A stretch of 64,000 nucleotides of DNA from Dictyostelium discoideum (taxonomy: Eukaryota): the NCBI GenBank assembly GCA_000004695.1, contig CM000153.2:2176001-2240000 (forward strand). Reading direction: 5' to 3'. The position numbers were made by a program, and so were the translations under genes. The notes under the pieces are model-generated. The model was not told the origin of the DNA. It was given only the letters and a program-made list of their open reading frames with translations, and made no database searches. Position 1 is the first letter of the stretch. Each line of letters starts with the position of its first letter. Shown piece by piece: positions 41,244-52,340 of the stretch.

Positions 41244-44151
41244 TAAATTTGAAAAAATTGTTTAAATAAATTAATAAAAAAAAAAAAAAAAAAATAAAGA
41301 ATTAAAAAATTTTTTTTCTAAAAAAAATATAAAATATTTCATTTTTAATTTTATTTTCTTTATAAAACCTAAAAAAAGTACTTTTTAAATTATTTTATTT
41401 TATTTATTTATTTTTTTTTTTATATTATTGCCATTTTTTCTAAGGAGGTTCGAGAAAAGGTTTGTCTTAGGAATTTTTAATTTTTTTAAATATAAAATTA
41501 TTAATTTGGTTTAGATTTAAATACAAATAATATTTTAGTTTAGTTTATCTAATAAAGAATTTTGATTTTTTTAAAAAAGAAGATGTTATTATTAATTAGT
41601 TGGAAAAAAAAAAAAAAAAAAAAAAAACACAAAAAGACAAAAAAAAAAAATTTTAAAACAACATTCTATATTAAATAAAGAACAAATGAAAGATAAAAGT
41701 AGTTTTATGTATTTGTTTTTTTTTTTTTTTTTTTTTTATCTATTTTTAATCACTTTAGAGTTTAAAAATTAATACATATTAAATGATTAAAATAAATATA
41801 TGATTGTGTTTGATTAGATTAATTGGTCTAAGGAGATTAGATTAGGAAATACCGATTCTAGAATGCTATACCTTGCAAGTTAACCTTTTTAATTTAATAA
41901 TTTGTTTGGGTTTTTAAAATTATTTGGATCTTTTGAAAGAGTTCTTTTGCTATTAGCAAAGGTTCTAGATAGGTCATAATTTAAACATTTGTATCCCCAT
42001 TCAAAATATTCTTTAAGGAATATTAGCATTATCTATGTTAACCTCATGGTCTTTTTTCATATTTGGTGGAATTATAGGTGTAATTCTGTTAAAGCATTTA
42101 TTGTTTTTGTATCTAATCCTTTTGTGGGTCCAAAATTTGCCACCACCACCTGTTGCGATGTATATGAAATTTTTCAAAATTTTACAAATTCTAATGTTTT
42201 TTTGTACATTTAAAGAAGATATGGCCATAAGGATGTTACCAAGGTCTTCTTTACATAAAGTACAAGGTTTATTATGAAGATAGTTTAGTAGTAAACATCA
42301 TGCATGAAATCTAAACATTGTATCTTTGTTTTAGGATTGAGTATTGATTGACGAAATTAGGTTTTTGGAATGTTTGAATCTTGTATGTGAATTTCGTTAT
42401 ACCATTCTGCCAGTGATAGAGGTTGATTATTTTTGTTTTTAATTGATGGGGAAGGAGTAAATATTGCTCTTTTCTTTCTTATTATCCCAATTTTCCAGAT
42501 TGTGGTTTAAGATATAGGTTTTAGTCTTTATTGTCGAACTTGACGATTTCCACAGGATTAAATACTATTAAGAATTTATGGCATTTTTCTGTATATGATG
42601 ATAGAAACAATTTTTTTTTTTATTGATTGTTTATTTTTTTTTTTTTTTTTTTTTAGATATTAATTAATTTTTTACTTGATCTTTAGTAACAATAAGTGTT
42701 TATTAGATTTTATATTTTTATATATTTTTTATTGATTGTTTTTTTTTTTTTTTTAAGTCTTTTTACATGAAAAATGAAATAATCAAAAAAAGAGGTTGTT
42801 GTGGTTGTTGTTGTTGTAGATCATTTTTATCTATCTGATTATTTTTAATTAAAAATCAAGTTAGTCAGAAAATTTCCAAATTTTTAACTTTTTTTTAAAA
42901 AAAAGAAAATAAGATGAATATTATAAATAATACCATAAATATTTATATTTATAAAAATATTTTTTATTTATTTTTCCTTTTTTTTATTCTTCCTTTTTTT
43001 TTTATTTTTCCTTTTTTTTTATTCTTAATTTTTTAAACAATAAATCTTAGCAACTAAAACCTTATTAAAATTGTTTTTTTTTTATTTTTATTTTTATTTT
43101 TTTTTTTAATTTCTTAATATATTTTTTTTGATTTAAGTGTGTTTTGTTATAAACAAATAACAAAAGTGTTCATAATTGTTTAATTTCTCTCTCTCTTTAA
43201 AAAATTCTAAGGTTTATTCAATAAACTTTATTTAAAAAAGGGATTTATATGGCCATATATTTTCGTAAACCACTTTTAAATTCTTTTTTCTATATTTTTT
43301 TTAATAGTAAAATTAAATTTGCTTATTTTTTTTTTTTATTTTTTTTTATATTTTTTTTTAATCACTTTTTTACCTTTTTTTTTTTTTTTTTTTTTTTTTT
43401 TTAAATTCTATCTTTAATCTTTGTTTTTGAAATAATATTATTTCATTTTATTTGTTTTAATTCTTTGGTTTGGAATGAAAAAAATTTATACTCTAATAAT
43501 TTTTCGATTATTTCCAATTTAAAATTATTTAGATTGGTCTTAAAAAGGAATGTTAGTTTTTTTTTTTTTTTCCTTTCTTTTATCAAACAAATTTCTAAAT
43601 TGGAAACTATTAGATGAATTTAATAAAAATATTTAATTGTTTTTTTTATACTTAATCTTCCCATAAATCATTGATCAACATTCGAATTATTTATAAAAAC
43701 CAACTCAAACTGAATAAAAAAAAATTAAATAAAATAAAATGAAATAAATTTTACAGATGTAATAATTATAATTTATAGATTTTTGTTTTTGTTTTTCTTT
43801 TTTTCTTTTTTTTTTTTTTTTTTTTTTTTTTTTTTTTTTTTTTTTTTTTTTTTTTTTTTTTTTTTTTTAATTTTGGTAATATAACTTTCTCCTCTAATAT
43901 TTGATATACAAGGTCTGTGGTTATTTATGTTTTAATAATACACATATATCATCTTTTCTATTGCAAATATATATTACCAGCAAATAAATTATTAATATAA
44001 ATTGTTTTATGATCTAAAGTTGTAAATAAATTGGTAGTTGTAAAAACTTCATCTTATTTGTTGAAGATACTCTATTACTATTACTATTACAATTTTTAGA
44101 ATGATAAATAATGGCACTTGTTGAGCTCCCATGATATATATATTAAATATC

Positions 44152-44162
44152 CAGAATCGAAC
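44152..44162 (-). promoter_or_regulatory. External B box (ex-B) downstream of the tRNA-Ser gene.
   Basis: GTTCGATTCTGG on the minus strand lies ~35 bp past the tRNA 3' end. Dictyostelium tRNA genes commonly carry such a duplicated B-box-like element (consensus GGTTCGAATCC). Confidence 0.4.
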
Positions 44163-44196
44163 ATCTGATCTAAGATATTTTTCAATTATAAAATTT

Positions 44197-44277
44197 CGAC
44201 ACCTGCAGGGTTCGAACCTGCGCCTCCGAAGAGAACGCCTTAGCAGGGCGCCGCATTAACCACTTTGCTAAGGTGTC
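44197..44277 (-). tRNA. tRNA-Ser (anticodon GCU), 81 nt including the discriminator, with a long variable arm.
   Basis: On the minus strand the sequence is GACACCT-TA-GCAAAGTGGTTAATGCGG-CGCC-CTGCTAA-GGCG-TTCTCTTCGGAGGCGC-AGG-TTCGAAC-CCT-GCAGGTGTC-G. The acceptor stem is GACACCT/AGGTGTC. The A box is TAGCAAAGTGG and the B box is GGTTCGAACCC. The anticodon loop is CT-GCT-AA. The extra arm CTCTTCGGAG forms a hairpin. Confidence 0.88.
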
Positions 44278-44382
44278 ATGGAAAAATATTATGGTGATAC
44301 ACTTGGTAAAGTTGTATAAGAAGAGATTTCATTTTTCATATAAAAAAGACTTAAAAAAAAAAAAAAAAAAAAAAAAAAAAAC

Positions 44383-51590: not shown

Positions 51591-51630
51591 TGACAGCTTA
51601 GCAAAGTGTATCACCCATTTGGTATTCGAC

Positions 51631-51711
51631 GACACCTTAGCAAAGTGGTTAATGCGGCGCCCTGCTAAGGCGTTCTCTTCGGAGGCGCAGGTTCGAACCC
51701 TGCAGGTGTCG
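51631..51711 (+). tRNA. tRNA-Ser (anticodon GCU), identical in sequence to the copy at complement(44197..44277).
   Basis: The same 81-nt sequence GACACCTTAGCAAAGTGGTTAATGCGGCGCCCTGCTAAGGCGTTCTCTTCGGAGGCGCAGGTTCGAACCCTGCAGGTGTCG occurs on the plus strand. Confidence 0.88.
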
Positions 51712-51743
51712 ATACTTTCGAAAAAAAAAAACTAATGAGCGCT

Positions 51744-51754
51744 GGTTCGAATCT
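51744..51754 (+). promoter_or_regulatory. External B box downstream of the tRNA-Ser gene.
   Basis: GGTTCGAATCT lies 33 bp past the tRNA 3' end. Confidence 0.45.
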
Positions 51755-52340
51755 CTTTGAGATGAATATTGAAGTAAATATTTAAAAAAAAAAAAATAAA
51801 GATTAAATAACAAAAAAATCTTTATTTATATAAATTTTTAAATACCAAATTTAAATTTATTGTTTAGGATATTAAATTACACAAACAATGGGGAATTTAA
51901 TATCCCAAAAAATATCCCAAAAATAATTGATATTTTTTTTTTACAAAAATCTTTATATTATTTTTTTTAAAAAAATCTTTTTCAAATCAAAACATTAAAA
52001 AAAAAAAAAATATATTATATTTTTATATTTTTCTTATTTTTTTATTTTTTTTTTTATGTTTTGGGTTGAAAAAATATCTAAATGATCCACAAAAATAACT
52101 TGATTTGAAAAATGAAATCTAAATTAAAAATTTTGGGTTTAAAATTGCGCAATAATTATTTTAAAAAAGATTTTTTTTAATTTATTGAATTAAAACAAAA
52201 TATCCTTTTTTTTAAGTACACAAACAATTATTTTTTTTTTTTTAATTTGATTTTTTTAATTTGATTTTTTTTTTTTTTTTTAAAAAAATATTAATACACT
52301 GTAAAACTTTTTTTTTTTTTTTTTTTTTTTTATTTTAAAA

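Follow-up and report, generated by a model that had tools for sequence, protein, structure and literature searches.

Tandem tRNA-start repeats, TRE5-type insertions and a segment in two orientations between facing tRNA-Ser(GCU) genes of Dictyostelium discoideum

Two identical tRNA-Ser(GCU) genes of Dictyostelium discoideum AX4 face each other across a few kilobases, and from each gene towards the centre the same types of feature follow in the same order: one unit of a tRNA-like repeat, TRE5-type retroelement sequence and an array of short tandem repeats. How did the two arms come to mirror each other? The locus lies in a stretch of 64,000 nucleotides of chromosome 4 (CM000153.2, approximately 2,176,001-2,240,000; hereafter the window), in which ARAGORN and Rfam detected exactly two tRNA genes, both tRNA-Ser(GCU) and with their 5' ends facing. 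A preliminary description of the window had explained the arrangement as an inverted duplication around the tRNA genes. The reading that we prefer, with a probability of roughly 0.8, is that an old tRNA pair received independent, rule-driven TRE5 insertions in pre-existing tRNA-derived arrays, and that the two arms also recombined with each other.

The start-to-start distance of the two genes in the window (7434 bp) is the value given in Table S2 of PMC5391098, which identifies them as SerGCU-11 (left) and SerGCU-10 (right) and the window as AX4 chromosome 4. Their coordinates in the preliminary description were reproduced by ARAGORN, and the 81-nt cores are indeed identical, the base at position -1 being the only difference in a direct comparison. 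Both genes have the cloverleaf, the A and B boxes and the anticodon (ARAGORN, Ser(gct); Rfam model RF00005, 61.1 bits per gene against a threshold of 29 bits), and the A box TAGCAAAGTGG at +8 matches the motif TRRYNNARYNG (PMC5391098). The ex-B boxes expected 33-35 bp downstream were found as motifs of the form GTTCGAxT at +35 (left) and +34 (right), and comparison of the two downstream flanks revealed no relatedness beyond this motif.

For comparison we used orthologous regions, located through the DUF7035 gene of the flank and through the centre gene, in ACTFIR (L001), ACTFIW (L003), 'cf. discoideum' ACTFIZ (L004), D. citrinum (L005) and D. firmibasis (L006), together with ACTFIT, a second D. 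discoideum assembly without Ns (GCA_054883475.1). Flank identity to AX4 is about 90% in ACTFIR and ACTFIW and lower in ACTFIZ, D. citrinum and D. firmibasis. ACTFIR, ACTFIW, ACTFIZ and D. citrinum all have the two SerGCU genes head to head, bracketed in all four by the same flanking genes (for a P-type ATPase and the DUF7035 protein), and D. firmibasis has a single copy. In ACTFIZ and D. citrinum the pair occurs without the arrays or the centre gene. Thus the tRNA pair predates all the insertions described below, and the proposed inverted duplication is not supported. Paired tRNA genes were already known in the D. discoideum genome (PMC8163159), as were further SerGCU clusters (-1/-2 on chromosome 1 and -3/-4/-5 on chromosome 3; PMC5391098, Table S2). 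The present locus resembles them in having two identical SerGCU genes a few kilobases apart, but this pair is not recent, being older than the split of D. discoideum and D. citrinum, and it adds the arrays and an inversion polymorphism.

The tandem repeats, described earlier as of about 40 bp, have a period of 39 bp according to Tandem Repeats Finder (TRF), with 4.6 copies on the left and 7.9 on the right, and the two arrays are inverted relative to each other. Each unit consists of the first 17 nucleotides of the tRNA gene (GACACCTTAGCAAAGTG) and 22 nucleotides matching the tRNA's own 5' flank; that is, the array repeats tRNA positions -22 to +17 in tandem and in register with the gene. Matches to the unit numbered 11 in the 64-kb window, against 0 expected, and all of them fell at this locus; when metagenomes were scanned, the unit had no match. 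Because the unit ends at +17, the final A-box G is replaced, which leaves 10 of the 11 positions of this box, and the B box is missing. The units are therefore not functional tRNA genes, and neither ARAGORN nor Rfam called a tRNA on them. One unit stands in the proximal 5' flank of each tRNA gene, as the preliminary description had noted; its range of 45-110 bp for these flanks narrows to 46 nt (left) and 48 nt (right).

The target site duplications (TSDs) of the insertions consist of unit sequence, which indicates that the arrays were present first and were then split by the insertions. ACTFIW retains the unsplit state: on its right side, three units adjoin the tRNA gene directly and in register (L003 9146-9262). 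Among the genomes compared, the arrays occur only in AX4, ACTFIT, ACTFIR and ACTFIW (the D. discoideum clade), and their copy number varies between 3 and 10. The first 39-bp duplication and the later changes in copy number probably arose by slippage or unequal exchange. Prokaryotic integrative elements likewise leave non-functional partial tRNA copies at their ends, so that such copies adjoin foreign DNA and an intact tRNA gene (bioRxiv 10.1101/2022.07.05.498093); in contrast to the copies presented there, those described here are 5' parts with upstream flank, are repeated 3-10 times in tandem and stand inverted on both sides, and no integrase or att logic was identified at the SerGCU locus.

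The retroelements on both arms have their 5' ends towards the tRNA genes and their oligo(A) ends towards the centre, as had been noticed before. TRE5-A.1 has the structure AB-ORF1/ORF2-BC (ORF, open reading frame), with an A-module of 200 bp, a B-module of 290 bp that is duplicated in the 3' untranslated region and a C-module of 134-137 bp, and its integration site lies about 50 bp upstream of a tRNA gene, at which the 5' end of the element points (PMC3159450). Outward from the left tRNA gene we found 33 nt of flank, the TSD, an A-module remnant, B and ORF1, then B, C and oligo(A), and the first base of the element lies 46 nt from tRNA position +1. The modules of the left-arm elements agree with this scheme (B 291 bp, C 137 bp; an AT-rich A-module with an exact period of 200 bp, 45528/45728). 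Where three deleted tandem copies had been proposed, there are one full-length TRE5-A.1, cut by the N gap and with 5' and 3' B copies 98.9% identical, and one older A-B-C element without ORFs; the impression of separate deleted copies arose because every TRE5-A carries duplicated 3' B and C (PMC3159450). The left TSD (GTTGTATAAGAA) occurs three times, on the tRNA side, between the two elements and after the second, which is the expected outcome when a second element strikes the occupied -46 position; TREs that reach an occupied tRNA gene are known to give TRE-TRE tandems (PMC5391098).

The ACTFIT assembly is collinear with the window from 45103 to 64000 at 99.5-99.7% identity and without Ns. 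To the left of the point matching 45103 it contains (L007 1-4160) the last part of ORF1, then ORF2, which is 1047 aa long and has an RVT_1 match, an A-run and finally B and C. The reverse transcriptase of the left element is thus seen in the orthologous ACTFIT copy, and in the AX4 window ORF2 falls in the N gap. It follows that the gap conceals about 4.3 kb of TRE5-A.1 and that the real distance between the tRNA genes is about 11.6 kb; the 7.35 kb reported earlier is a value of the assembly. The comparison with this independent gap-free assembly confirmed the layout to the right of the gap and excluded a chimera there. For the AX4 reference this amounts to a correction, in that a gap on chromosome 4 at about 2,221,003-2,221,102 (placed through the coordinate match with Table S2) hides most of a full-length TRE5-A.1. 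Further gaps of 100 Ns lie in the window at 2481-2580, 19412-19511 and 24851-24950.

On the right arm, a GC-rich 5' module had been reported on a single retroelement copy. The head is present (459 bp, about 50% G+C in a genome of 20% G+C, the window as a whole being about 20%), but it is not the A-module of TRE5-A, which is an AT-rich unit of 200 bp. Instead of the A and 5' B modules of known TRE5-A, this element has the head followed by only the last 86 nt of B, and its C-module is 88-89% identical to the left-arm copies; the most fitting designation is an element derived from TRE5-A, either chimeric or deleted. In ACTFIZ the same head, with the same end base, meets the TRE5-A sequence at another position (L004 8458-8947), and it ends in ...CCGCCATACTGTCG at each TRE5-A junction in the two genomes. 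The head had no match in Rfam, and its predicted RNA fold was not unusual (z = -1.4). It may be a template-switch chimera or belong to a family of non-autonomous elements. A supposed tRNA-like head before the GC-rich module of ACTFIZ was dropped, as neither Rfam nor ARAGORN supported it.

Beneath the right element lies a stump of 32 bp with its own TSD, which stands 51 nt from the right tRNA gene once the later insertion is removed. It is the extreme 3' end of an element of about 620 bp, here called X, which has the appearance of the 3' portion of a further TRE5-type family. The TSDs differ between the arms: GTATTCGATGACAG and the stump's TTGGTATTCGATGAC each occur twice on the right, and GTTGTATAAGAA three times on the left. 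In their distances of 46 and 48 nt, orientation, A(200)/B(290)/C(137) modules, oligo(A), TSDs and stacking, the insertions resemble known TRE5-A (DRE) integrations, and both tRNA genes are experimentally mapped targets of de novo integration by tagged TRE5-A (240/5132/259 mapped contigs for SerGCU-11 and 14/106/19 for SerGCU-10; PMC5391098, Table S2). What differs from the known integrations is the target, an array of partial tRNA copies, and therefore the TSDs are array sequence.

Each genome carries its own set of insertions, and no AX4 insertion is common to ACTFIR or ACTFIW. In ACTFIW, an element with 265-bp long terminal repeats (LTRs; 97% identical) and a gag/aspartic-protease ORF (L003 932-3670) lies 15 bp upstream of the left tRNA-Ser gene, which is the position of DGLT-A (PMC5006619), an element reported as possibly unable to amplify any longer in AX4. 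ACTFIR carries X and another non-LTR fragment. Two old TRE5-A fragments are shared by ACTFIR and ACTFIW with identical junctions, one lying three units from the right tRNA gene and the other five to six units (ACTFIR) or at least nine units (ACTFIW) from the left tRNA gene. The different unit counts beside the same fragment indicate that the array changed its size after that insertion. The AX4 element with 1.33 A-modules was considered as an ancient insertion shared with ACTFIZ and rejected, as its TSD is array-derived in AX4 and a different, non-array sequence in ACTFIZ.

These observations suggest how the arms could have become mirror images without being copies of each other. Before the insertions, each tRNA gene of the pair in the clade would have carried an in-register array directly upstream. 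RNA polymerase III (Pol III) factors at each gene would steer TRE5-type elements to a site some 48 bp upstream of it, invariably in the orientation in which the 5' end of the element faces the tRNA, and insertions at -46/-48 would cut off one unit and push the rest of the array towards the centre. Each arm would thereby gather its own stack, the youngest element being nearest to the tRNA: on the left the full-length TRE5-A.1 on top of the A-B-C derivative, and on the right the element with C, partial B and the GC-rich head on top of the 32-bp stump. The mirror symmetry of the retroelements is then expected because the orientation and distance of TRE5-A are fixed and because the insertions split pre-existing arrays abutting the tRNA genes. 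The notion of a single, recombination-shaped landing pad is borne out by the mapped TRE5-A targets, the inverted centre and the variants shared between arms (see below).

The centre between the arms exists in two orientations. Unique 13-mer anchors over 47082-49259 run in the same direction as in L001 and in the opposite direction to L003, with the flank anchors reversed, as was also seen by BLAST; relative to the flanking genes, the centre is oriented one way in AX4 and ACTFIT and the other way in ACTFIR and ACTFIW. Each orientation is represented by two independent assemblies, without Ns there, and the segment is bounded by inverted repeats. The proposed self-comparison of the region revealed inverted matches of 112-174 nt that link the arms. 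Furthermore, the unit variants CATTTGGTATTC, TTTCACC and TTTTTCGAT are present on each of the two arms of AX4 and missing from ACTFIR and ACTFIW. Two other variants are absent from AX4, TTTTAAGAT being found on each arm of ACTFIR and TTTTAAAAT on each arm of ACTFIW. TCTCACCC, likewise never seen in AX4, is present on the two arms of ACTFIW and in ACTFIR on the left arm only. The variants thus follow the lineage and not the arm, which is a signature of exchange between inverted repeats. We infer that recombination between the arms caused both the homogenisation of the arrays and the flip: the arms, as inverted repeats of the 81-bp tRNA genes, the arrays and the B/C modules, would recombine ectopically, non-crossover events would homogenise the arrays, and at least one crossover would have flipped the inter-tRNA segment between AX4/ACTFIT and ACTFIR/ACTFIW. 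In the Saccharomyces cerevisiae chromosome XIV flip/flop (PMC9731477), a segment bounded by inverted repeats likewise occurs in two orientations among lineages and has homogenised repeats. Compared with what is presented there, our segment is far smaller (a few kilobases) and its repeats are tRNA genes, tRNA-derived minisatellites and retroelement modules.

Several points weigh against this reading or parts of it. The name TRE5-A is assigned from anatomy and the literature, and the ORF1 fragment, 99-100% identical to AX4 proteins in a protein search, matches only entries named 'hypothetical protein'. The left tRNA gene and the start of TRE5-A.1 were not recovered from ACTFIT, and the AX4 scaffold is thus what links the two sides of the gap. 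A stump of T13-GAATTGG (46286-46305), separated from the neighbouring element by a 12-bp TSD, faces opposite to the TRE5 rule and is accounted for neither by a normal insertion nor by the inversion. The breakpoints are placed only within the arms (44304-47082 and 49259-51590): the inner flanks are of low complexity, sensitive BLAST was swamped by low-complexity matches, and it was the k-mer anchors that bounded the breakpoints. The outgroups lack the centre and so carry no information on which orientation is ancestral. Finally, the variants shared between arms could partly reflect the exchange of array segments through inversions with breakpoints inside the arrays, and not gene conversion.

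The degenerate HNH-like ORF noticed in the centre proved to be a frameshifted pseudogene with family matches in PHROG. Compared with the intact 401-aa protein ACTFIR_010595 (P0001), it is 82% identical, with at least three frameshifts and one in-frame stop, and it aligns more distantly to P0002 (43%). ACTFIT matches AX4 across the gene with four mismatches and no gaps, and hence shares the AX4 frameshifts. An exhaustive HMMER search found the C-terminal domain of about 110 aa in 2078 representatives, and relatives occur on contigs of giant-virus metagenome-assembled genomes. All 24 members sampled match PHROG 3322, 3118 and 1035 (endonuclease, HNH and endonuclease-VII; E-values down to 1e-17), and the family weakly matches the Cas9 HNH domain (E = 0.002). 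From these profile matches the label 'HNH-like' is justified; the family alignment has no invariant His, the usual catalytic His not being conserved, and the motif reads SLER/SINR. Pfam yielded no usable match for the pieces of the centre ORF, for P0001-P0003 or for ten distant relatives, and an AlphaFold2 model of P0001 from a three-sequence alignment had a mean pLDDT (predicted local distance difference test) of 29. The Dictyostelium proteins resemble the phage and giant-virus HNH/endonuclease-VII-like proteins in these matches and differ from them in a Cys-rich N-terminal half; furthermore, the ACTFIR gene for P0001 is annotated as multi-exon and the AX4 copy is a pseudogene.

Each of the three Dictyostelium paralogue groups is positioned upstream of a tRNA gene whose strand it shares: P0001 at tRNA-Ser, P0002 and P0053 at tRNA-Val(CAC), and the truncated P0054 2.8 kb from tRNA-Met. 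Chance proximity is unlikely, with a rough estimate of about 0.02 per locus at about one tRNA gene per 80 kb. Beside the Val paralogue is a truncated tRNA-Val copy, consisting of 30 nt of flank and the first 38 nt of the gene (L002 13930-13969, minus strand).

Among other explanations, a recent inverted segmental duplication, in which one block comprising tRNA gene, flank, retroelement and array was duplicated and the two copies later came to differ in their elements, would account for the like order of feature types, the identical tRNA genes and the inverted matches between the arms. We consider it very improbable, as it is already contradicted by the different elements and TSDs of the two arms: the downstream flanks of the tRNA genes are unrelated, ACTFIZ and D. 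citrinum have the pair without arrays or these elements, no insertion is common even to AX4 and ACTFIR/ACTFIW, and the targeting rule of TRE5-A predicts the same order at any head-to-head tRNA pair. An assembly artefact, in which two separate SerGCU loci were joined through repeats, is scarcely credible; it is suggested by the position of the 100-N gap inside a repeated element and by the other AX4 gaps nearby, but ACTFIT is collinear without Ns and has a full TRE5-A filling the gap, and four other genomes hold the same pair between the same flanking genes.

The centre gene invites another explanation, in which arrays and centre form a selfish module and the cleavage and repair, or the integration, associated with the HNH/endonuclease-VII-like gene made the partial 5' tRNA copies. 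In its favour, arrays and centre gene occur together in AX4, ACTFIT, ACTFIR and ACTFIW and are both absent from ACTFIZ and D. citrinum, the three paralogue groups share their position at tRNA-Ser, tRNA-Val(CAC) and tRNA-Met genes, another partial 5' tRNA copy with flank stands beside the Val paralogue, and the domain family occurs on giant-virus contigs and matches phage HNH/EndoVII families. However, the family does not conserve the catalytic His, neither terminal repeats nor insertion junctions could be recognised for such an element, the co-occurrence amounts to effectively one phylogenetic event, and the tRNA-Met paralogue lies as far as 2.8 kb from the gene. The neighbourhoods of tRNA genes are, moreover, safe havens in which any foreign DNA survives in the compact D. 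discoideum genome, and for this reason we keep a causal link between HNH-like gene and arrays as a minority reading. There is accordingly a slim chance that the family is a selfish DNA element that is associated with tRNA genes and descends from giant viruses or phages, with the arrays and the truncated tRNA-Val as footprints of its action at the tRNA 5' boundary; if so, the tRNA-bounded segment would act as a flip-flop cassette. A further possibility, rather unlikely as well, is that the pseudo-A boxes of the units position Pol III factors, so that TRE5 inserts at -48 minus n x 39 and the old fragments came to lie within arrays without any array growth. The fragments shared by ACTFIR and ACTFIW, three and five to nine units from the tRNA genes, would fit, and the A box rather than the B box has been argued to set the precise integration position (PMC5391098). 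On the other hand, the units have neither the last conserved A-box G (TAGCAAAGTGt) nor their own B box, on which, in functional form, targeting depends, and all AX4 insertions lie 46-51 nt from the real tRNA genes; the five to six units in ACTFIR against at least nine in ACTFIW by the same fragment mean that the array was resized after the insertion.

Of what is described here, tRNA pairs, TRE5-A targeting and TRE tandems are known biology, and we did not find the arrays, the inversion polymorphism or the tRNA-adjacent HNH-like genes in the searchable literature. New, then, are a clade-specific, fast-changing minisatellite of in-register copies of the tRNA start and 5' flank on both members of a tRNA pair, arms whose recombination probably flipped the intervening segment between lineages and homogenised the arrays, and HNH-like genes that form a family and lie upstream of tRNA genes. 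The arrays set 3-10 near-complete A boxes at steps of 39 bp upstream of a single B box, and therefore constitute a natural experiment on an open point of TRE5-A targeting, namely, which of the two boxes determines where the element inserts. The features of the locus are summarized in Table 1.

Table 1. Features of the SerGCU-11/SerGCU-10 locus, in positions of the window
Feature	Position	Strand	Description
ex-B-box-like motif, left	44154-44162	-	GTTCGATTC; starts at +35 past the left tRNA 3' end
tRNA-Ser(GCU) SerGCU-11	44197-44277	-	AX4 chr4 2220197-2220277; ARAGORN; Rfam 61.1 bits; Table S2 of PMC5391098
Left proximal 5' flank	44278-44323	-	46 nt; diverged 39-bp unit; final 13 nt (44311-44323, GTTGTATAAGAAG) are TSD copy 1
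Full-length TRE5-A.1	44324-45512	+	5'-truncated within the A-module; N gap inside; 46 nt from tRNA
TRE5-A.1, 5' parts	44324-44672		A remnant 44324-44352 (29 nt), A29 run, 5' B-module 44382-44672
TRE5-A.1, ORF1	44462-45002		ATG at 44462 in the 5' B-module; runs to 45002
TRE5-A.1, N gap	45003-45102		100 N; conceals about 4.3 kb (rest of ORF1 and ORF2)
TRE5-A.1, 3' parts	45103-45512		3' B-module 45103-45363, C-module 45364-45500, A12
TSD copy 2	45513-45525	+	GTTGTATAAGAAG; between the two stacked left elements
Older ORF-less TRE5-A derivative (A-B-C)	45528-46273	+	99.7% match in ACTFIT
Derivative, parts	45528-46273		1.33 A-modules, A40 run, B 45834-46124 (291 bp), C 46125-46261 (137 bp), A12
TSD copy 3	46274-46285	+	GTTGTATAAGAA; distal to the ORF-less derivative
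T13 + GAATTGG	46286-46305	.	Last 7 nt of C-module and oligo(A), reverse orientation, tail-to-tail with left neighbour
Left 39-bp array	46306-46486	-	About 4.6 units; TRF 46309-46486; identical in ACTFIT
Centre genes	47087-49306	+	Asn-rich ORF region 47087-47650, then pseudogene 47853-49306
Right 39-bp array	50536-50857	+	About 8 units; TRF 50536-50841, 7.9 copies
X stump TSD	50843-50857, 50890-50904		TTGGTATTCGATGAC; perfect 15 bp
Extreme 5'-truncated insertion (X stump)	50858-50889	-	T16 and 16 nt, the 3' end of X (about 620 bp)
Right retroelement	50907-51582	-	5' end 48 nt from tRNA; TSD GTATTCGATGACAG at 50893-50906 and 51583-51596
Right element, parts	50907-51582		Oligo(A) (T9 on + strand), C-module 50916-51037, last 86 nt of B 51038-51123, head 51124-51582
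Right proximal 5' flank	51583-51630	+	48 nt; 1.2 repeat units
tRNA-Ser(GCU) SerGCU-10	51631-51711	+	AX4 chr4 2227631-2227711; ARAGORN; Rfam 61.1 bits; Table S2 of PMC5391098
ex-B-box-like motif, right	51744-51753	+	GGTTCGAATC

Some further observations concern the retroelements. A 'BC.ABC' distal end was reportedly described as a subform of DRE by Marschalek and colleagues in 1992; the pattern at the SerGCU locus differs from it in being two insertions split by a TSD. 'Mini' TRE5-A insertions consisting of T8 and GAATTGG alone were found at L002 13207-13221 and at about 9800-9815 of L009. The former has a 14-bp TSD (CATCATAAAAATAA) and lies 47 nt upstream of tRNA-Val(CAC), indicating that extreme 5' truncation of TRE5-A to 7 nt does occur. 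Copies of X in ACTFIR (L001 12150-12770, L002 12558-13181 and L008 11268-11893) are 97-98% identical, with their 5' ends 41-72 nt upstream of three tRNA genes (Ser, Val and Met), and in L001 and L002 the T-run is on the side away from the tRNA. The 16-nt X stump of AX4 was considered as the orthologue of the 620-bp X on the left arm of ACTFIR, which would have placed a breakpoint next to the tRNA, and was rejected as the junctions and TSDs differ.

Others concern the centre gene family and its tRNA neighbours. The AX4 centre contains an (AAT)47 run (47348-47490), which encodes a long poly-Asn tract, and an uninterrupted run of 81 T (47726-47806), the length of which differs between AX4 and ACTFIT. 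The truncated tRNA-Val copy stands tail-to-tail with the intact tRNA-Val gene 600 bp away, and a similar 5' match lies at L009 10168-10186. In L008, two identical tRNA-Met(CAT) genes (3205-3276 and 11958-12029) in direct orientation, 8.7 kb apart and with near-identical downstream flanks, bracket two tandem discoidin-like lectin genes and P0054.

As for the surroundings of the pair, an exon in the window is 100% identical to the AX4 glycyl-tRNA synthetase, and an 844-aa ORF is 100% identical to the AX4 EGF-like/DUF7035 protein. In ACTFIZ, a 15-bp tandem repeat (CCGAAAACCTTTTTT) with at least four copies lies downstream of the left tRNA-Ser gene (L004, about 4490-4563), in the place occupied by the ex-B motif in other genomes. 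In D. firmibasis (L006), the glycyl-tRNA synthetase gene adjoins the single tRNA-Ser(GCU) gene and in AX4 it is about 38 kb away, indicating that the region was rearranged between the two.

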